NCBI GenBank assembly: GCA_963668425.1
Contig: OY764332.1
Location: 188,943 to 252,942, forward strand
Direction of reading: 5' to 3'
Length of the DNA stretch: 64,000 nucleotides
DNA from: Minisyncoccota bacterium
Lineage (GTDB): Bacteria; Patescibacteriota; Minisyncoccia; Phycocordibacterales; JABAAK01
A program made the position numbers and the translations under genes. The notes under the pieces are model-generated. The model was not told the DNA's origin. It made no database searches and saw only the letters and a program-made list of their open reading frames with translations. Positions 3,785 to 64,000 of the stretch are shown here, one piece after another; within the stretch, counting starts at the first letter, position 1; every line of letters starts with the position of its first letter.

Positions 3785-4011
3785 AAATATAATTAACGTA
3801 TAAAAGATAATAATGAAAATATCTGAACACAAAACACACACACCAGATATGTCTGTAGTGTACCAACATAAAATGCTTTATATTGCTTCCTATGGCGTAT
3901 TTTGTGTATAAGTCGTGGAAATATTAGAGCCCTTACTAGAATAGGGGAAGAAATCCTCAAACAAGTGGAAATATGCTGAAGGTGGGACGTATGTGGTGCT
4001 GTGTCGGGAGG

Positions 4012-4587
4012 TTATCCAAGCATTACCCCTTCCTGTTGTAGTACTGTCAATAGTGCTTGGAATACTTTTAAATGTAACTCCGCATCATATAGTGCTGAAT
4101 GTCGCTTTTCTTCTTCTTCTTCAATCCCCAATGCCTCCAATGTGCTACTCATCCCTGCCACACCCAATGCTGCCAGAGACAAGGTGGTGACATCCATCAT
4201 TCGGCGTGATAGTGGTAGTGCGGTATCATTCCGATAGGTGTCCCACAAACGCTCTAACATTATATAATCAAAATGCGCGTTTGCGGCGACGATGTGTAGT
4301 TCAATATCTTCAGCAATACCATACTGCTTCACGATTTCTTGCTCAAACTCTTTTAAGAAAACTTCTGGATTAACCCCATGTGTCTTTGCCTGTTCCATAC
4401 TGATGCCGTGTACCTCTTCTGCTGCACTATCCCATGAAAACCTCTCTGGCATATAGGTGATATTCCATTCTCGTGTGTTGACCGGCTGTATTTTTTCATC
4501 TAAAAATATTGCTCCACATTGAATCACTTGCGATGAGCAAAAATCTACGCCTGTTGATTCCACATCTAATGCTATAAATCTGTGCAT
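4012..4587 (-). CDS. DEDDh-type 3'-5' exonuclease (DnaQ/epsilon-like)
   Basis: Exo motifs are present: FIALDVESTG (DxE), NAHFDYIML (D) and HSALYDAE (H-x4-D). Start placed at the internal Met (MHRFIALDVE, 4587), which removes the overlap with the proS stop at 4592. Confidence 0.75.
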   Translation of the reverse strand: MHRFIALDVESTGVDFCSSQVIQCGAIFLDEKIQPVNTREWNITYMPERFSWDSAAEEVHGISMEQAKTHGVNPEVFLKEFEQEIVKQYGIAEDIELHIVAANAHFDYIMLERLWDTYRNDTALPLSRRMMDVTTLSLAALGVAGMSSTLEALGIEEEEEKRHSALYDAELHLKVFQALLTVLQQEGVMLG

Positions 4588-4591
4588 ATAT

Positions 4592-5845
4592 CTATGATAT
4601 AGCGTGTAGTAACCCTTCAACAACGGTATCCAGCATTTTTTTCTCGTCTGTCGCCCGGTCTTTGTATTCTATTTTTCCTTCTGCGCATGTTTTCTCTGAT
4701 ACTATCAATTGTTGCGGAATACCGACAATATCACTCTCAGCGAATTTTTCTCCGGCAGATATGTTTCGATCATCGTACAGCACTTCAATCTTTCGCTCGG
4801 TTAGCTGTGTGTACACATCATCTGCTGCCTTTGCTACTGTATCAGAATTTCCTAATGCAATAAGATGCACATCAAACGGCGCGATACTTGCGGGCAACAC
4901 CATCCCTGTATCTGATCCAACCATCTCAACCACAACTCCGAGCAGTCGTGCTGGGCCGATGCCATATGATCCCATATACACTGGCACTTGAGTACCCGTG
5001 CCGTCTGTATATAGTAATCCAAGCGCGTCAGAAAACCGCATTCCGAGTGTGAAAATATTCCCCACCTCACACGCAGGATGTTCCTCAAGCTCCTCCCGTT
5101 GCAATTCCAGTCGTGCAAGCACTTCATCTGTATACACTTCTTTATTTAAAGCAATCTTTTTACCTTTGTGTACATAAATAACATCCTCACCCGCAGGCAC
5201 TATGGTTTGAAACTCGTCACTGAATTCAGAAAACGCTCCTCCGCTTGCAAATGTCCGATAGGTATTTTTGCCGATACCAACCCGTTCAAACACGCGCAGA
5301 TATGCTTCCGCGCATTGTTCATAAAACACCTTGTGTTGCTCTTCATCAGTGCAAAAAGAGTATAAATCTTTCATAATAAATTCTCGTGTTCGCAAGATCC
5401 CGCTCTTTGCTCGCTCTTCATTACGAAATTTTGTTTGAAACTGATACAAATAAAATGGCACATCACGATATGAGTTGACATGCTGTCGTGCCAAATCAGT
5501 AATCGGCTCTTCGTGCGTCCATCCAAGCCCTAATTCACCGCCAACTCGTAGCTGTGTCCGAAACCACACCTCATCGGCATCACCCTTCCACCGTCCTGAC
5601 TGCTCCCACACTTCTGGATTTTGTAACCCGTTCAGCAGTACTTCCTGCCCACCGATGCTGTCCATTTCTTCACGAATAATTTTGATAATCTTATTTAATG
5701 ACCGTAATCCAAGCGGTAGAAAACTATACACTCCTGCCATTGCCTTGTGGATGTACCCTGCCCGTATCAGTAGCTGTGCATTCAGTGCCATCTCATCAAC
5801 TGGCACTTCTTTTCGCACCCGTGTCGCCAAAAATGATTGTCGCAT
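4592..5845 (-). CDS. proS: proline--tRNA ligase, bacterial-type core without the INS editing insertion
   Basis: MRQSFLATRVRKEVPVDEMALNAQLLIRAGYIHKAMAGVYSFLPLGLRSLNKI... is the typical ProRS N-terminus, and class II motifs and the anticodon-binding C-terminus are present. About 417 aa versus about 570 for INS-containing enzymes. Start taken at Met7 of the ORF. Confidence 0.9.
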   Translation of the reverse strand: MRQSFLATRVRKEVPVDEMALNAQLLIRAGYIHKAMAGVYSFLPLGLRSLNKIIKIIREEMDSIGGQEVLLNGLQNPEVWEQSGRWKGDADEVWFRTQLRVGGELGLGWTHEEPITDLARQHVNSYRDVPFYLYQFQTKFRNEERAKSGILRTREFIMKDLYSFCTDEEQHKVFYEQCAEAYLRVFERVGIGKNTYRTFASGGAFSEFSDEFQTIVPAGEDVIYVHKGKKIALNKEVYTDEVLARLELQREELEEHPACEVGNIFTLGMRFSDALGLLYTDGTGTQVPVYMGSYGIGPARLLGVVVEMVGSDTGMVLPASIAPFDVHLIALGNSDTVAKAADDVYTQLTERKIEVLYDDRNISAGEKFAESDIVGIPQQLIVSEKTCAEGKIEYKDRATDEKKMLDTVVEGLLHAIS

Positions 5846-6030
5846 ATATACAAAGTATACCACCTACATGCAGTAGTAAAATTGCGTATGCTACACCATA
5901 CAATGCCTACACATCATAACCCCTTATGGCAAAGTCCGCTGTATTTTGTTATACTACAGGCAGTATCGGAAATGTTTTCCGAATTGCTATTTGTTGAGCT
6001 ATATACATCTAATTGTATTGGAGATTTGAA

Positions 6031-17008: not shown

Positions 17009-17046
17009 ATGCTTTCACTATACCACAATGTATACCATGTCAAACC

Positions 17047-35529: not shown

Positions 35530-35603
35530 GGCTCGTAGTATACCACATTACCCTTTCCTAAGATCTGTCATGTAGGACAGGCACATCTGTACTACTATAT
35601 AGT

Positions 35604-39762: not shown

Positions 39763-39782
39763 ATGGTAGGAGTATACCACAT

Positions 39783-52980: not shown

Positions 52981-54693
52981 TTAAAAGGTATTTGTGGAAC
53001 GGATTCTTGCGTTTATGAGTGGTATAACGGATTCTTCACCGGCAATAAACACTAGGATGGATCGGCCAAAGAAGTAATAGAAAATCTCTTTTTGACTTGA
53101 CGGGTTTCGTATCACACGAACATCTTGGTTATCAATAATACGAGATTCAACAATCACATTACTTACTTTTGACTGTTGGAAGAAGTTCGGAAAAACAGCA
53201 AGGAAGGCGTTGATTGCATTCTTTTCCCAGTTCCGTATCCACACAAATGCATCACCGTATTTTTTTACTGATGCAATGAATATGCCGTTTACTTCAGTTT
53301 GTGTCAGATATTTTCCGACGAAATAGTAATCGTCAAAGGCGTTTTGTAACCCTCCTGGAAAACGCACATTGAAAGTGTCGGAAAAATCCTCAAAGCTGAT
53401 TTGCAATTCTTTTTCTTCAACCGGCTTATACGGCACATACTTTGTTATTGTGTCCTGTTCACCTTTTTTTTCTGTGATAGATTGCCATGTATCAGATAGG
53501 GCTATTGTATCTGATGTATCTACAAATACTTGATTTTCACTGTTGAGCACATCGGATACCAGAGTTATATCTGCTGTGCCGTTGCTGTTTTCGATCGGTT
53601 TTTCTGCAGGAGACAGTGCGAGGAATATAATAGAAAAAAGCAACCCGGCGAGTAGGAAAAAGACGATGGCAAGTAATAACATATTTTGTCTCCGAAGTGG
53701 CTTGTTCGGTACCGGCTCATCCGAAGAAGTGGCATATGACCGGACATCCCGTGCTTTTAATCCTATTTGTTGTAATTTTTTCTTTTTTTGCTTGAAATCT
53801 TTCCATGCGTCCTGGATTGCTCCCTTTTCAATAACTTCCTGCTGCTTCTGCTTTAGTGACTCCCTTTTTTCTTTTGTAAAAACATCTTTGGGGCGTATTC
53901 TGCCTTGGGCTCGTGCAAAAATACCCTTCCTTTCTGCTGTTGGATCGCTTGATTTTTCTGTGCTGCTTGGTGCCCTTGTATCAGGACTCTTAGTTGGCGT
54001 GGCAGGTTTTGACTGTTCTCCTTTTGGGGTACTTGCTGTACCGGAGACAGGTTTTCCTGATGGCTCTTTTTGTTGTTCTTTGGTAGCATCATGCGCTGAT
54101 TGCATGTATGCAGTTGCTCCAGAGAGAATACGAGTTATGTTTTCTTGATCGATGGATTTTGCATCGGCATTAATGGTGGATGCTTTTGGTGTTTGTGTGC
54201 CAACGCCCTGCTTTTGTTTTCCTTGGACGAAATTTTTATACCTGTCCCGCAACACCACTGACTCCTTCATGACGTCTTTAGTTTTTCTGAGATACTCTTC
54301 CTGCGCTTGTCGCTTTTCTTCTGCCTCTTTTGCTAGTATGGTGCGTAATTCGGCACCACCTTTTGTTTGTGCCATGTCTCTTGTGTCCTGATGATAGGTT
54401 CGCAAGACGGGTACCATGTACTCTTTTTTGTTTTCTTTGTCTTTTTTTGGAAGTTTTTCTGTCGTTGTGTTTTTATTTTGTATCTCTTGCTCAACGGTAT
54501 TTTTTTTGTGCTCATTTTTTTTACCCTCTCGCATAAATTCACCGGACTCATCAACAGCTGAAGCGTTAATAGACGCGAGGTCAATGGTGTCTTTTTGCGG
54601 CAGGTTTGTCGCTTTCTCATTACCTTGCAAGGAAGATGTGTCAGATTTTACTTTATTTTTATCACTGGGTATCTGTTTTTTATCTTGTGCCAT
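52981..54693 (-). CDS. hypothetical membrane protein: ~340-aa K/E/T-rich disordered N-terminus, one TM, ~210-aa C-terminal domain
   Basis: TM MLLLAIVFFLLAGLLFSIIFLAL. No recognisable domain. Confidence 0.6.
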   Translation of the reverse strand: MAQDKKQIPSDKNKVKSDTSSLQGNEKATNLPQKDTIDLASINASAVDESGEFMREGKKNEHKKNTVEQEIQNKNTTTEKLPKKDKENKKEYMVPVLRTYHQDTRDMAQTKGGAELRTILAKEAEEKRQAQEEYLRKTKDVMKESVVLRDRYKNFVQGKQKQGVGTQTPKASTINADAKSIDQENITRILSGATAYMQSAHDATKEQQKEPSGKPVSGTASTPKGEQSKPATPTKSPDTRAPSSTEKSSDPTAERKGIFARAQGRIRPKDVFTKEKRESLKQKQQEVIEKGAIQDAWKDFKQKKKKLQQIGLKARDVRSYATSSDEPVPNKPLRRQNMLLLAIVFFLLAGLLFSIIFLALSPAEKPIENSNGTADITLVSDVLNSENQVFVDTSDTIALSDTWQSITEKKGEQDTITKYVPYKPVEEKELQISFEDFSDTFNVRFPGGLQNAFDDYYFVGKYLTQTEVNGIFIASVKKYGDAFVWIRNWEKNAINAFLAVFPNFFQQSKVSNVIVESRIIDNQDVRVIRNPSSQKEIFYYFFGRSILVFIAGEESVIPLINARIRSTNTF

Positions 54694-54753
54694 ACACTTA
54701 TCATACCTTGATTTTGCGGTATGTATTGGTGATGTATATCATATACCAATGAC

Positions 54754-54781
54754 TTGTGTTGTGTAGTTATTTTGGTATACT
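54754..54781 (+). promoter_or_regulatory. putative promoter of the two-gene toxin-antitoxin-like cassette
   Basis: TTGTGT, 16 bp, (TGg)TATACT at 54776-54781. GGTATAC boxes at 54774-54780 and 54794-54800 flank the expected transcription start. Confidence 0.35.
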
Positions 54782-54808
54782 GTTTCTGATTACGGTATAC
54801 ATCTATAC

Positions 54809-55429
54809 ATGTTTCAATACAAAAAAGCAGTCCAAGTACTTAATTTTTTTGCTCGCAAGGCAGAGGAGGAGGGGGTTTCGCTGTATAAGACGAATATGCT
54901 GAAGTTGGTATACTTTGCTGACAAAAAACACCTCAGGGAATCATTGCGGACTATTACCGCGGACAGTTATATTGCAAAACAGAAGGGACCTGTGGCACGA
55001 GATACCTGCGCCCTCATTGAAACTCAGGCAGGTACTACAGAACAGGAATCGGAAACTGTGCAATATGCGAATACATTTATTATTTCTGAGGAAAAATGGC
55101 GACCATGGAATAGGAAAAAAGGTATAAAAATAATGTCAAAAAAGGAAGTTGATAAAAAGGTGCTTTCAGCGTCAGACATAGAAACACTTACTTTTATATG
55201 GAGTGTATGCAAAGCGGACTTGCGGGACTTATGGAAAAAAACTCATTTATATCCGGAAGGGAAAAAAGCAGAGGGAGGGAGGGCATGGGCGGAAATTAAG
55301 GAAGAAGAGCTTTTCAGTACAATTGAGAATGATCCACTCGGTGAGCAAACTGTTGCAGAGATTAAAAATGCTGAAGAGTTGTACCGAGAGCGGAAGGAGG
55401 CGAAAATGGCATTCGGAATAACAACCTAA
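54809..55429 (+). CDS. Panacea/DUF4065 (SocA-like) domain protein, putative antitoxin
   Basis: AVQVLNFFARKAEEEGVSLYKTNMLKLVYFADKKHLRESLRTITADSYIAKQKGPVARDTCALIE matches the K(L)xKLxYFAD...G.P(I)t...Y.A...GPV pattern of the family. Confidence 0.7.
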   Translation: MFQYKKAVQVLNFFARKAEEEGVSLYKTNMLKLVYFADKKHLRESLRTITADSYIAKQKGPVARDTCALIETQAGTTEQESETVQYANTFIISEEKWRPWNRKKGIKIMSKKEVDKKVLSASDIETLTFIWSVCKADLRDLWKKTHLYPEGKKAEGGRAWAEIKEEELFSTIENDPLGEQTVAEIKNAEELYRERKEAKMAFGITT

Positions 55430-55437
55430 ATGGCAGT

Positions 55438-55770
55438 ATGAAGGTAGGAAGTGTTATGGTCTCAAGTTTGGGTGGCAAGCAGCATAGGGCGGTCTGTGTT
55501 GGGGTGGATTCAAACGGTTTTGTTGCTCTGGTATTAGCGACATCAAAAGTAGCGAAAGTAAAAGAGCTTGCATCCCGTAGGCAAAATTTGCGTACTGCGG
55601 AATCTGTCGTTGAAGTTACGCAGGAGGAGTATCAAAGCGGTCTACATCCAGATATTTGCTCACTTACCAAACATACTTGTTTTGATTGTAATGAAATAAT
55701 TACTCATCATGTTGACTTATTACTTGAAAAAATACCCCCCCTTGTGATCCACTGCCGATGGATATTTTAG
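55438..55770 (+). CDS. MazF/PemK-like putative toxin, reading frame broken at a C7 tract (a -1 shift extends it to 55844)
   Basis: MKVGSVMVSSLGGKQHRAVCVGVDSNGFVALVLATSK... (G.hh.h......K.R..hhh......h.hh..TS) ...CFDCNEIITHHVDLLLEKI. After CCCCCCC (55735-55741) the -1 frame continues PCDPLPMDILDTIRQVIILSPEIETYTKERFKIT*, which looks like the usual MazF C-terminal helix. Confidence 0.5.
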   Translation: MKVGSVMVSSLGGKQHRAVCVGVDSNGFVALVLATSKVAKVKELASRRQNLRTAESVVEVTQEEYQSGLHPDICSLTKHTCFDCNEIITHHVDLLLEKIPPLVIHCRWIF

Positions 55771-55893
55771 ATACAATCCGACAAGTGATTATTCTTTCTC
55801 CTGAGATAGAGACATATACTAAAGAACGATTCAAAATAACATGATCATTTTCCTCCTCTTTACAATGTCTGTCGTGCAGTAGCTATGTGCATA

Positions 55894-58188
55894 TTAGTTT
55901 CGTCCGTGCCTCCTTTCTTTTTTGCCAAAAAATCCTCTATCTTTACCTCCCCTATCTCCTCCACCTCCCCTGCCCCCTCTACTATCTCCTCTGTCTCCTC
56001 TGCCCCCTCTACTATCTCCTCTGCCCCCTCTGTCTCCTCTACCTCGCCTATTGTTGTGTGATTTTTGATTTGGCGATTGAGTATGGTCAGCATTCTTCAG
56101 TACTGCATCAAAAAATGACGGATCTCTATCTTTTACACTAAGTGCAATTCGTCCATCAGGACGAACCTCTTTTACTACAACTGGCACTATATCTCCAGAG
56201 GAAACCACACTATCTACCGTATCAATTCTCTGTGGAGAGAACTCAGACACATGAATCATGCCATCTTTACTCGGTGAGAGCTCCGCAAACGCGCCAAAGT
56301 CGGTAATATTCTTGATGGTGGCATCAATTGTGTCACCAACTTCAAATGAGCGAGTCATGTCGTGTATTTTCTGTATTACTGAGGCAACTGCTTCTTTGTT
56401 GCCACTCACTGAAACTGTTCCGTCGTCTTCAATATCAATACTATCAACACCAGTATCAGTACGAATCTGCTTGATGGTTTTTCCTCCAGTGCCAATAACC
56501 ATACCGATACAGTCAGGATCAATAGTAATTGTTTCTATATGTGGCGCGTGTGGTGAAAGTGAAGTACGTGGTTCAGGTAACTCTTGCGTGATAGTTTCCA
56601 AGATGTGTAGTCGCGCATCTTGCCCTTTTTTCAGTGCCTCAGAAAGGATCGGGAGTGTGATACCTTCAATTTTTACATCCATTTGGATTGCAGTTATACC
56701 ATTTTTTGTGCCGGCGACTTTAAAATCCATAGCACCGTGATGATCTTCTGGGCCCTGTATGTCAGTAAGCAAAACGTGCTTATCCCCTTCTTGCATCAGC
56801 CCGATGGCAATACCGGCAACCGGCGCGGTAATCGGTACACCACCGTCCATTAGTGCGAGCGTAGAAGCACAAACAGAACCCATTGAGGTGGAACCATTTG
56901 ACGCGAAGCATTCAGAAACTAGACGCATTGTATATGGAAAATCATTCTGAGAAGGCAATACGTTACGTAGTGCCTTCTCAGCAAGTGCTCCGTGTCCGAT
57001 TTCTCGTCGCTTTGGACTGCCGATCCGCCCAACTTCACCCGTTGAATATGGTGGAAAGTTATAATGATGCATAAATCGCTCATCAGTTTCTGGGTCTTCA
57101 ATAGTGTTCAGTGATAACGCGTCTCCCGGACTGCCGAGCGTTAATGCAGTAAACACATGTGTGCCTCCTCGGTAAAAGATACCGCTGCCGTGCAATCGCG
57201 TGGACATACCACCAGCTTGTGCATATAGTGGCCTTACTTCGTCCATACTTCTTCCGTCGACACGCCGGCTATTTTTGACTGCCTCACTGTGTACCAGAGC
57301 ATCAGTCATCTCCTCAAAATATGAATCGGTGACCTTTCTTTCGTCAGGGATGCCTTTTTCCTCAAGGAGTTTCATCCATTCTTCCTGTACTGAGCCCAAA
57401 CTCATTTCAGAAGAAAACATTGCCTGCTCTATTTTTGGGCGGATGATGGTATCAAAAATTTGTTTTGCCTCGGCGGACAGTTCGGTGACGGAAATTTCTT
57501 TTTTCTCCTGTCCGACCTGTGTGATGATATCTTGCTGAAATTTTTGTAAGTCGGCAAGTGTGTGCACTGCCTGTTCGCTGACCTGCATAATCTGTTCTTC
57601 TGAAACCTCTTTACCCTCCATCTCTATCATGGTGATTGTATTTTCTTTGCCGCACAAAAGAATATGGTCGGTTAGATCTTTTGCTTCTTCAAAGTTGGTG
57701 AATGGTTGCCAGTTATTCGTGGTTTGTGAAAACCGAACAGCGGATATCGGTCCGTTCCACGGGATAGATGAGGTGCCGAGTGCAAGCGATGCTCCAATGA
57801 CCGCAAGTACATCGGGGTTGTATGAGCCGAATGAAAGTACCATTGCCACAACCTGTACTTCTTTGTGGAGTTCCTTCGGGAAGAGAGGGCGGATGGTTCG
57901 GTCTATAATCCGTGCGTTCAGCACTGCTTCCTGTGATGGTCGCCCTTCCCGTCGCACAAAGCGACTACCTAATATCGCGCCGACTGAGTAGAATCGCTCT
58001 TCAAACTCAACAGAGAGTGGAAAATAATTTTGTGTTGCTTCATGTTCTGACATAGTTGCTGATACAAACACAACTGTATCTCCTGCTTCTATAAAGACAG
58101 AGCCGCCGGCATTTTCGGCGAGGTTAGTGAATGTTGCAGTTATGGCAACATCGTTGATTGTTGTAGTAAAGGATTTTTTTTGTTGCAT
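55894..58188 (-). CDS. pnp: polyribonucleotide nucleotidyltransferase (PNPase) with RGG-rich C-terminal tail
   Basis: Two RNase PH domains (...GRPSQEAVLNARIIDRTIRPLFP..., ...REIGHGALAEKAL...), KH (IGMVIGTGGKTIKQI) and S1 (VGDTIDATIKNITDFGAFAEL) domains, then NNRRGRGDRGGRGDSRGGRGDRGDSRGGRGGGGDRGGKDRG. Confidence 0.93.
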   Translation of the reverse strand: MQQKKSFTTTINDVAITATFTNLAENAGGSVFIEAGDTVVFVSATMSEHEATQNYFPLSVEFEERFYSVGAILGSRFVRREGRPSQEAVLNARIIDRTIRPLFPKELHKEVQVVAMVLSFGSYNPDVLAVIGASLALGTSSIPWNGPISAVRFSQTTNNWQPFTNFEEAKDLTDHILLCGKENTITMIEMEGKEVSEEQIMQVSEQAVHTLADLQKFQQDIITQVGQEKKEISVTELSAEAKQIFDTIIRPKIEQAMFSSEMSLGSVQEEWMKLLEEKGIPDERKVTDSYFEEMTDALVHSEAVKNSRRVDGRSMDEVRPLYAQAGGMSTRLHGSGIFYRGGTHVFTALTLGSPGDALSLNTIEDPETDERFMHHYNFPPYSTGEVGRIGSPKRREIGHGALAEKALRNVLPSQNDFPYTMRLVSECFASNGSTSMGSVCASTLALMDGGVPITAPVAGIAIGLMQEGDKHVLLTDIQGPEDHHGAMDFKVAGTKNGITAIQMDVKIEGITLPILSEALKKGQDARLHILETITQELPEPRTSLSPHAPHIETITIDPDCIGMVIGTGGKTIKQIRTDTGVDSIDIEDDGTVSVSGNKEAVASVIQKIHDMTRSFEVGDTIDATIKNITDFGAFAELSPSKDGMIHVSEFSPQRIDTVDSVVSSGDIVPVVVKEVRPDGRIALSVKDRDPSFFDAVLKNADHTQSPNQKSHNNRRGRGDRGGRGDSRGGRGDRGDSRGGRGGGGDRGGKDRGFFGKKERRHGRN
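55970..56040. repeat. 30-bp-period tandem repeat encoding the RGG tail of PNPase
   Basis: CTGCCCCCTCTACTATCTCCTCTG at 55970-55993 and 56000-56023, with a partial third copy. Confidence 0.75.
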
Positions 58189-62043: not shown

Positions 62044-62071
62044 TTGAAATATTGTTAATGTAAGGTATACT
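62044..62071 (+). promoter_or_regulatory. putative promoter of the DUF5678-like/protease cassette
   Basis: TTGAAA (62044-62049), 16 bp, TATACT (62066-62071), 10 nt before the ATG at 62082. Confidence 0.45.
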
Positions 62072-62081
62072 GTAAGGTATT

Positions 62082-62345
62082 ATGGCAGATGTCTCAACAG
62101 AAAAAATAGAGGAAGAGGTGAGGGAGAATTACACTTTCTTCAAGAAAAATCTTCCTGAACTTATTAAGGAACATAGAGATAAGTTTCTTATCATACGTGA
62201 TAAGAAGGTTGAGGATGTTTGCGACACTGGCGAGGAGGCAATAGTAAAGGCAAAAGAAAAGTTTCCAGACGAATTATACTCAATCCAACAAGTTAGTGAG
62301 AGAGAAGTTGACCTCGGCTCTATATCAGCGTATGCCGTATTTTAA
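62082..62345 (+). CDS. small DUF5678-like protein (87 aa)
   Basis: FFKKNLPELIKEHRDKFLIIRDKKVEDVCDTGEEAIVKAKEKFPDELYSIQQV resembles the L..LL..y.GKwVAI.dgkVv......EEa...A.e.f pattern. By-eye assignment. Confidence 0.5.
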   Translation: MADVSTEKIEEEVRENYTFFKKNLPELIKEHRDKFLIIRDKKVEDVCDTGEEAIVKAKEKFPDELYSIQQVSEREVDLGSISAYAVF

Positions 62346-62859
62346 AGTACCACTGAAAGATAATAGATTTATTATACGATCGGTGATTTTAGACATTCGG
62401 TCATTATCACCTAAAGAGGTAAAATCTTATATTGAACGTGTTAATTTCGAGGGTGAGAACCGGTCCGTAGTGAGTGCACTTATTGACACTGGTGCTACTA
62501 ATTGCAGTATAACCGAAGATCTTGCAGAACGATTATGCCTAAAACCAACAGGGCAATGTACTGTTGGTACTGCTGGTCATCCGATAGAATGCAATCAATA
62601 TTTCATTCTTCTTGGTATACCAGTATCAGAAGTGTATGGAATGCAAAAAATTTATGATGAGAAAAGTGGTCAACAAAGAGAAGTTCCCTATGGTGTTACT
62701 CACTTTAAAGCACATTTTGCTCAGGTAAGCAGTATGCCGAAACAGGAAAAGGTAAGGGGTTTTGACGTTATTATTGGCATGGACCTTCTCGGAAAAATGA
62801 TTTTTCACTATTCAGGTAACCCTGCTACCTCTCAAGGGGAATTGACTATAGGATTTTAA
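62332..62859 (+). CDS. retropepsin-like (clan AA) aspartic protease
   Basis: SALIDTGATNCSITEDLAERLCL (DTG active site) and FDVIIGMDLLGKM (hhGhDhL). ATG 62332 overlaps the upstream stop (62343-62345) by 14 nt. The tracked ORF starts at GTG 62296. Confidence 0.75.
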   Translation: MPYFKVPLKDNRFIIRSVILDIRSLSPKEVKSYIERVNFEGENRSVVSALIDTGATNCSITEDLAERLCLKPTGQCTVGTAGHPIECNQYFILLGIPVSEVYGMQKIYDEKSGQQREVPYGVTHFKAHFAQVSSMPKQEKVRGFDVIIGMDLLGKMIFHYSGNPATSQGELTIGF

Positions 62860-62911: not shown

Positions 62912-64000
62912 TCACCTTTTTTGTATGACTTTTAGGAAGGTGTCGTGCGATACTGTTACTCGTCCCGCTGCTCCCATTTTCTGTTTTCCCTTTTTTTGTT
63001 TTTCTCGCAGTTTCATTTTTCTGGTGATGTCACCACCGTAGAGTTTTGCTGTAACATCTTTGCGTAGAGCAGGTAAGGTTTTAGAGGCAACGATACGCCC
63101 ATCCATTTTTGCCTGTATTTTGATAACAAATAATGCTCTGGGTATTGTTTCATGCAGGATGTTTACCATATCCCGCGCTTCACGCTCACCTCGCAAACGC
63201 GATACAATACTTGCAAATGCTGGAAATTCTTCCTCAGCAAGCAGTATGTCCAGCCGTGTAACATCCGCTTCCCGCTGCCCTATCCGTTTGTATGAGAGTG
63301 ATGCGTATCCGGAACTCACACTTTTTAACCTGTCAAAAAACTGTCGCATCATTTCTCGCAATGGCATTTCACCCTGTACGATAAAGCGATTGTTTTTAAA
63401 ATCATTAACCTGTAGCACATATCCTTCATATTCCTGCAATAGTTGTGATACTGTTGGTACATATTCCGCAGGAGCAATAATGTCTACCGCCACCCACGGC
63501 TCGGCTACCGCTTTTATTTCGTGTGTATCAGGAAACTTGGATGGTGTTGCGATGATCACTGTCTCATCTTTTTTTGTTGTTACGGAAAAATCAGTGCTCG
63601 GTGCAGTGACTACCAGATCTATTCCTGCCTGTCTTCGTACCCGCTCGGTAATAATTTCAAAATGTAGCATTCCTAAAAATCCACACCGAAATCCTTTTCC
63701 CAGCGCTGTTGACCGCTCCTCTTCATATGAAAATGCTGCATCTGTTAACCGCATTTCCTGAAGAGCATGGTGTAGTGCGTTATACTCATTCGCATTTTGT
63801 GGGTAGAGTGATACCCATATTACCGGCACTGCCTCCTGATACCCAGGAAACGGTGGTGCATTTGAGCGGGCGTGGGCAATGGTATCACCGACAATCGCAA
63901 TGCCCGGCTCTTTAATACCTGTGGTGAAATAGCCGATCATTCCTTCTTGTATGGATTCGGTAGATACCATATCTGGCTTGAATATACCAACATCTTTCAG
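62912..64000 (-). CDS. lepA: translation elongation factor 4 (LepA), C-terminal ~362 codons (gene runs off the right edge)
   Basis: ...GYFTTGIKEPG..., GFRCGFLGMLHFEIITERVRRQAGIDLVVTAPS, and the LepA-specific C-terminal domain ...YGGDITRKMKLREKQKKGKQKM. The frame stays open upstream of the tracked Met to base 64000 (LKDVGIFKPD-MVST...). Confidence 0.92.
   Translation of the reverse strand: MKDVGIFKPDMVSTESIQEGMIGYFTTGIKEPGIAIVGDTIAHARSNAPPFPGYQEAVPVIWVSLYPQNANEYNALHHALQEMRLTDAAFSYEEERSTALGKGFRCGFLGMLHFEIITERVRRQAGIDLVVTAPSTDFSVTTKKDETVIIATPSKFPDTHEIKAVAEPWVAVDIIAPAEYVPTVSQLLQEYEGYVLQVNDFKNNRFIVQGEMPLREMMRQFFDRLKSVSSGYASLSYKRIGQREADVTRLDILLAEEEFPAFASIVSRLRGEREARDMVNILHETIPRALFVIKIQAKMDGRIVASKTLPALRKDVTAKLYGGDITRKMKLREKQKKGKQKMGAAGRVTVSHDTFLKVIQKR

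Follow-up and report, generated by a model that had tools for sequence, protein, structure and literature searches.

A Panacea antitoxin gene paired with a gene for a predicted MazF-fold toxin, probably inactivated by a frameshift, in a Minisyncoccota genome

In a stretch of 64,000 nucleotides (nt) from a Minisyncoccota bacterium (GenBank assembly GCA_963668425.1, contig OY764332.1, positions 188,943 to 252,942 of the forward strand), hereafter called the window, two co-oriented genes are separated by only 8 nt from the stop of open reading frame 1 (ORF1) to the start of ORF2. An original prediction, made from the letters alone, had read the pair as a Panacea (DUF4065) antitoxin gene followed by a MazF/PemK-like toxin gene with a broken frame; its coordinates, gene layout, and quoted peptides were all verified. 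The locus raises the question of whether these genes constitute a toxin-antitoxin (TA) module and, if so, whether the module is still functional. We consider it quite likely that they are a PanA-PanT module with a MazF-fold toxin, which has been inactivated by a frameshift and is decaying. The features concerned are as follows.

54809 to 55429, plus strand: ORF1, panA, 206 amino acids (aa), intact, containing NMLKLVYFADKKHL...ITADSYIAKQKGPVARD
55438 to 55770, plus strand: ORF2, panT as written, 110 aa, containing GSVMVSSLGGKQHRAVCVGVDSNGFVALVLATSK
55438 to 55741, plus strand: N-terminal part of panT, in frame, residues 1 to 101, predicted beta-barrel core of the MazF-fold toxin
55735 to 55741, plus strand: run of seven C residues (C7), the frameshift site, identified from the sequence, the translations, the homopolymer list, and the alignment to the homolog P0002
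55740 to 55844, plus strand: C-terminal part of panT in the -1 frame (the frame of 55440), reading …PCDPLPMDILDTIRQVIILSPEIETYTKERFKIT, then TGA at 55842 to 55844

A Panacea gene linked to a small toxin family

ORF1 matched the Pfam model SocA_Panacea (PF13274, DUF4065) at an E value of 1e-11 (46.1 bits, the gathering cutoff being 25.7), its residues 31 to 146 aligning with positions 2 to 107 of the 113-position profile, and the Panacea pattern ascribed to it was thereby confirmed. A GPV motif occupies residues 60 to 62, within KQKGPVARD (residues 57 to 65); in the Vibrio harveyi PanA, this motif has been found important for neutralization (Kurata et al. 2022, PMC8832971). Nine PanA sequences paired with the toxin family aligned well together, and both G and P of GPV were invariant, as were K, KL, AD, H, D-Y-A, GP, and H-YPE. 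Between the window and a sister strain (L002), the ratio of nonsynonymous to synonymous polymorphism (pN/pS) was 0.10 for PanA, compared with 0.11 for pnp and 0.08 for both xerC and lepA, and PanA is therefore constrained by purifying selection like the housekeeping genes. The Pfam scan detected no DNA-binding domain in PanA, and the PADLOC scan gave no match for PanA or the toxin; among the PHROGs, only phrog_1281, of unknown function, was matched, by PanA.

We further surveyed the neighborhoods of toxin homologs. A Panacea gene was located directly upstream of the toxin gene in 10 of the 10 loci examined, that is, the window and L001 to L010, of which L008 and L009 carry the same protein. 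In nine loci, the two genes overlap by up to 8 nt or are separated by up to 8 nt; in L004, approximately 31 nt separate panA from the codon at the start position of the toxin. The relatives are as follows.

L001, Logan SRR22586461 contig, 893 to 2049: intact pair, antisense between rplB (L2) and rpsS/rplV (S19/L22)
L002: syntenic sister strain, 97% identical, with PanA and a shifted toxin
L003, Candidatus Kaiserbacteria: intact toxin
L004, Candidatus Spechtbacteria, VXOY01000032: toxin with an ATA codon at the start position
L005, Candidatus Paceibacterota, 641-kb chromosome OZ244939: toxin at 3885 to 4297
L006 to L010: four distant members, with integrases, restriction-modification genes, and a HEPN gene on their flanks

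In L005, an IS30-like transposase gene (HTH_38) at 4567 to 5649 lies directly downstream of the toxin gene. The genomic contexts of the pair are unrelated to one another, comprising pnp, a ribosomal-protein operon, the IS30-like gene, integrases, and restriction-modification genes. Because linkage to Panacea was found at all 10 loci in such different surroundings, the PanA-toxin pair is a cognate unit that moves between genomes of Patescibacteria, or the candidate phyla radiation (CPR), and other bacteria, and the pairing proposed in the original prediction is upheld. That distant members adjoin restriction-modification systems would fit a role in phage defense or addiction. A GC content of 42%, together with the Parcubacteria relatives, would agree with a host among the Patescibacteria.

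As a separate observation, the L001 module is situated inside the normally contiguous S10 ribosomal-protein operon, which is an unusual insertion site.

Family and predicted fold of the toxin

A word-indexed search of 5.8 billion proteins returned only two relatives of the toxin. One of them, P0001, is the sister-strain copy (94% identity), which is truncated as well; the other, P0002, is an intact homolog of 139 aa with 47% identity, which aligned end to end with the repaired 135-aa toxin of the window. When 1.84 billion cluster representatives (clusters at 50% identity) were searched exhaustively with HMMER, 32 relatives were obtained at E values of 1e-3 or lower, nearly all of 130 to 150 aa. 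Scans of metagenome and viral contigs with an alignment of the close toxin family recovered no relatives, tblastn of two family members against plasmids gave no match, and no Pfam, NCBIfam, PADLOC, or PHROG model matched the family. The toxin family is rare and unannotated.

The positions conserved across the whole family, numbered as in the window toxin, are His16 (35/35), Thr35 (35/39), Ser36, Asp83, Cys84, Asn85 (39/39), and Ser121-Pro122; the motifs of the family are H, ATS, T-x-FDCN, and SP. In the CPR/Patescibacteria subgroup, four Cys residues are invariant (C76, C83, C86, and C103 of P0002, corresponding to window residues 74, 81, 84, and 103), of which the family as a whole shares only that of the FDCN motif. 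Judging from the alignment, these four residues may form a metal site or disulfides of a kind not known from MazF.

AlphaFold2 modeled P0002 with a predicted local distance difference test score (pLDDT) of 94.6 and a predicted template modeling score (pTM) of 0.88, and the repaired window toxin with a pLDDT of 92.6 and a pTM of 0.86. When both models were compared with the PDB using Foldseek, the top 50 matches were MazF/EndoA/MoxT chains plus CptN, with E values of approximately 1e-4 and target template modeling scores of approximately 0.7. According to these models, the toxin is predicted to have the MazF/Kid/CcdB fold, an SH3-like beta-barrel followed by a C-terminal helix. The C-terminal helices, at residues 108 to 120 and 126 to 131 in the AlphaFold2 model, are both encoded downstream of the frameshift, in agreement with the MazF-like helix that had been expected at the C terminus once the frame was corrected. 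Compared with MazF, the model has two additional helices, one following strand 3 and the other being the second of the two at the C terminus.

A profile comparison with Bacillus subtilis MazF gave 80% probability and an E value of 1.3e-5 over the whole length, and placed Thr48 on the family Thr35 and Arg25 on the invariant His. We take Arg R25 and Thr T48 to be the catalytic pair of B. subtilis MazF. The residue adjacent to the family His is Arg in the CPR subgroup only (11/35), and is Tyr, Phe, or Pro elsewhere.

Frameshift in the toxin gene

The C7 run at 55735 to 55741 is the sole C/G run of at least 7 nt in the window. A run of eight C residues (C8) would yield the full-length toxin of 135 aa; with C7 as written, translation continues through nine out-of-frame codons to a stop at 55770. 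PanA is whole and the toxin ORF is shifted at C7, so that the window does not hold a module with both genes intact as written. The homolog P0002 matches CDP, SP, and TKERF, all of which are encoded past the shift, and because these conserved segments fall there, we regard the frame correction as real biology; the frame correction of ORF2 that had been assumed beforehand is supported by the end-to-end alignment with P0002.

Lesions were also found in relatives, although the toxins of L001 and L003 are intact. The L002 toxin also loses its frame within the short region affected in the window toxin, but the size of the shift differs. The toxin homolog of L005 is frameshifted at an A7 run, where A8 is needed, and its own PanA is intact. 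In L004, at the start of the toxin homolog (region 3995 to 4030), ATA stands where all relatives have an ATG. Between the window and L002, the toxin differs by five nonsynonymous and three synonymous changes, which suggests relaxed constraint on the coding sequence.

We also observed that initiation at the next possible start in L004, the TTG codon at position 4022, would delete the first strand; the ATA may be a substitution-type lesion or an unusual start.

Interpretation and alternative explanations

We propose that panA and then panT would both be transcribed, probably from a generic promoter just upstream, and that the toxin is most likely a sequence-specific endoribonuclease of the MazF/Kid type which arrests translation, by analogy with that family. 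PanA most likely neutralizes the toxin by direct binding, as for other PanAT pairs. The one-base deficit at C7 would give a product without both C-terminal helices and, since the encoded toxin would lack these predicted elements, it is probably inactive. PanA would persist as an orphan antitoxin, intact and still constrained, and the module, an ordinary selfish one, would be in the usual first stage of decay, in which the toxin is lost before the antitoxin. That the toxin has genuinely been inactivated seems probable to us, with an assembly error as the main alternative.

Several observations weigh against this interpretation. Pfam and NCBIfam scans of the toxin, both as written and repaired, found no PemK/MazF or other family (PemK at E values up to 10), and hmmsearch of the toxin family profile against PDB sequences returned no MazF, only chance matches with E values of approximately 1; weak PemK matches appeared in 2 of 31 family members, the best with an E value of 2.3e-4. 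Hence, the MazF/PemK-like assignment of ORF2 in the original prediction holds for the fold predicted by AlphaFold2 and Foldseek, but not for membership of the PemK_toxin family. Besides, the column of MazF R25 is His in 35 of 35 family members, and the canonical catalytic Arg is therefore not conserved. The toxin differs by too few substitutions for a significant contrast in dN/dS (the ratio of nonsynonymous to synonymous substitution rates). All indels of L002, two A6/A7 differences in its PanA among them, are confined to the 1.4 kb at the contig end and may be assembly errors, and the C7 frameshift itself could be a homopolymer consensus error. Because the L002 indels fall in the final 1.4 kb of the contig, we downgraded their cluster as a sign of TA-specific decay.

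If the C7 run were really C8, misread in the consensus of a long-read assembly, the module would be intact and active. We judge this unlikely, although it deserves more weight than any other alternative considered here: the lesions of close relatives are 1-nt homopolymer differences, the names and sizes of the contigs suggest long-read assemblies, the indels of L002 cluster where consensus quality is poorest, and purifying selection on PanA would be expected if the toxin were still dangerous. However, approximately 75 other homopolymers of 7 to 9 nt, all A/T runs, sit in unbroken-looking genes of the window, and therefore the assembly is not generally error-ridden; furthermore, the housekeeping genes shared with L002 show in-frame indels only, and the ATA at the L004 start position is a substitution and not a homopolymer artifact. 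A reading in which the C7 tract acts as a switch, giving full-length toxin through slipped-strand mutation, transcriptional slippage, or -1 ribosomal slippage, appears very improbable to us. A -1 slip of tRNA-Pro on CCC CCC C would give exactly the homolog-like IPPPCDP, the same short region varies in length between two 97%-identical strains, and an A7 run is the shift site in another relative, but no stimulatory RNA structure follows C7 (z=+0.72), intact homologs have neither a homopolymer nor a shift at this position, and the sister strain requires a different shift. Seven C residues are also short for efficient slippage. Programmed frameshifting is accordingly unsupported, because downstream structure was not found, the site is unconserved in intact homologs, and the shift of the sister strain differs.

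Other alternatives leave the decay of the module untouched and concern what its proteins do. The toxin might not be an RNase, its MazF/CcdB fold being used as a CcdB-like gyrase poison or for another target, which we regard as improbable; the replacement of the catalytic Arg by His has been described above, and CptN, MazF, EndoA, and MoxT chains were the structural neighbors. PanA might likewise be a proteolytic adaptor of the SocA type (type VI) that hands the toxin to ClpXP, instead of inhibiting it stoichiometrically as in type II systems. SocA gave the Pfam family its name, and the NCBIfam SocA_antitoxin model gave a weak match to PanA (E = 0.002), but the score for this equivalog (NF047745) was 17.7 bits against a cutoff of 190. 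Because this score is far below the cutoff, we rejected PanA as a SocA ortholog, and an adaptor role seems to us to have little chance of being correct. A more speculative reading is that there exists a Patescibacteria-centered, Cys-rich subfamily of MazF-fold PanT toxins with a His-Thr site in place of the Arg-Thr pair of MazF, whose expression is turned off time and again, and perhaps on again, as short homopolymers change in length (C7 here and A7 in Paceibacterota). It would be a phase-variable toxin, able even to sit antisense in the S10 operon, of ultra-small symbiotic bacteria; we think it improbable that all of this would hold together.

Relation to known systems

Whether a Panacea-MazF pairing is a described combination had been left undecided in the original prediction, and it proved to be already published: Kurata et al. 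2022 (PNAS, PMC8832971) predicted 1,268 PanAT families with PemK among the partner domains, and two PanTs that are EndoA/PemK/MazF-like by HHpred were validated as translation inhibitors neutralized by PanA. In Dataset S1 of that study, clusters T5 and T6 are EndoA/MazF/PemK-like by HHpred with antitoxin-toxin (A|T) gene order, and the examples given include the PanAT pairs of Pseudomonas moraviensis (cluster T6) and Bifidobacterium ruminantium (cluster T5); of the tested PanTs labeled 'MazF', that of Chryseobacterium bovis was toxic and that of Flavobacterium xanthum was not (PMC8832971).

The locus resembles the published MazF-like PanATs in that the Panacea gene comes first with a small toxin gene immediately downstream, the two being separated or overlapping by very few nucleotides, domain models match the toxin marginally or not at all and sensitive comparison gives it a MazF-like fold, PanA carries the GPV motif, and the contexts are mobile or defense related. 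It differs from them in its own toxin motifs (H, ATS, T-x-FDCN, and SP) and the four CPR Cys residues, clusters T5 and T6 being set beside it by description only; in the hosts of the close subgroup, which are Patescibacteria (Kaiserbacteria, Spechtbacteria, and Paceibacterota) and are absent among the Dataset S1 entries examined; and in the frameshift of the window toxin copy.

In contrast to MazEF and PemIK (Kid-Kis), a Panacea antitoxin gene lies upstream at every locus instead of MazE/PemI, which are of AbrB or ribbon-helix-helix type; the toxin has no significant PF02452 match and has His in the catalytic Arg column, and the family members, of 135 to 150 aa, have the extra helix after strand 3 and the second C-terminal helix. 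SocAB (type VI, Caulobacter crescentus) shares with the locus an antitoxin of the Pfam family SocA_Panacea, whereas PanA scores far below the NF047745 cutoff (17.7 against 190 bits) and its partner has a predicted MazF fold and is not SocB. Unlike type III systems (ToxIN, CptIN, and AbiQ), the locus has no array of RNA repeats as antitoxin and no Rfam match at gathering score, and a protein antitoxin gene lies upstream of the toxin at every locus.

The new elements are modest: a rare and unannotated subfamily with motifs of its own, His at the MazF Arg position, and CPR Cys residues; its presence in Patescibacteria; and the recurrent lesions of the toxin. The value is mainly one of annotation, in that a small unannotated toxin family is defined as a MazF-fold partner of Panacea antitoxins. 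Besides, PanAT systems are extended to Patescibacteria/CPR genomes of approximately 0.7 Mb, and the locus would offer a natural example of decay in which the toxin goes first, by frameshift or loss of the start codon, and purifying selection still acts on the antitoxin. The locus does not alter how TA systems are understood, since both the pairing of Panacea with MazF-like toxins and the way it works have been known since 2022.

Promoter region

The region between panA and the divergent upstream gene, which encodes a protein of 570 aa, contains the following elements.

54742 to 54801: divergent promoter region with generic -10-like boxes
54749 to 54742, minus strand: TTGGTATA, box for the divergent 570-aa gene
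54772 to 54781, plus strand: TTGGTATACT, -10-like box
54794 to 54801, plus strand: GGTATACA, a motif that begins 15 nt before the PanA ATG

GGTATAC occurs at 54774 to 54780 and 54794 to 54800, where it had been proposed to form auto-operators together with an imperfect palindrome at 54725 to 54750. The boxes and the palindrome do exist, but the operator role was not borne out for either. In the window, GGTATAC was observed 18 times against 4.5 expected, and most copies read GGTATACT and precede the ATG codons of unrelated genes by a short, constant distance. Copies of GGTATA(C)T, often following T or TG, occur throughout the window, for example at 5855 to 5861, 17024 to 17036, 35538 to 35544, 39772 to 39778, 54774 to 54800, 62064 to 62070, and 63982 to 63988, and the motif begins 15 to 18 nt ahead of the unrelated gene starts 17024, 35544, 62064, and 63988; in L001, TGATATACT lies 17 nt before the PanA start. 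Much of the palindrome (approximately 54725 to 54750) arises because two divergent generic promoter boxes form an inverted repeat (54742 to 54749 and 54772 to 54779). We therefore rejected TA-specific auto-operators, GGTATAC(T) being a genome-wide -10-like element before many unrelated genes. By their sequence, the boxes read as generic -10-like promoter elements and are not evidence for autoregulation. Transcripts from them probably have a short leader or none, and the positions of the boxes suggest that such short-leader or leaderless transcripts are common in the genome.

A third exact copy of TTGGTATACT is located at 54905 to 54914, inside the PanA coding sequence (the KLVYFAD codons). This copy probably reflects the conserved peptide by chance, but it could act as an internal promoter.

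Flanking genes

As previously noted for this locus, the surroundings are of housekeeping character, with pnp, ComM-like Mg-chelatase, NYN, and S15 genes all present.

55894 to 58188, minus strand: pnp, convergent with the TA module, with RNase_PH, KH, and S1 domains
52981 to 54693, minus strand: 570-aa gene of unknown function, divergent from the TA module

Terminal repeats and target duplications flanking the module were looked for, and none were found; the sole match in an Rfam scan of the locus was mir-492, which was sub-threshold and is attributable to chance. The 570-aa protein (52981 to 54693) had zero Pfam matches, and comprises an N-terminal half rich in Lys, Glu, and Gln, a single hydrophobic segment, and a C-terminal domain. 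A stretch of approximately 390 nt in the window (62338 to 62727) is absent from the sister contig L002, otherwise 97% identical, where it appears as a gap between blastn high-scoring segment pairs; it falls among overlapping small ORFs (62082 to 62345 and 62296 to 62859; DUF5678-like in L002). The C terminus of polynucleotide phosphorylase (55894 to 56100, the 3' end of pnp on the minus strand) forms a long repeat tail rich in Arg, Gly, and Asp (…RGRGDRGGRGDSRGGRGD…), which shows a repeat-length polymorphism relative to the sister strain, with in-frame differences of 18 and 3 nt.
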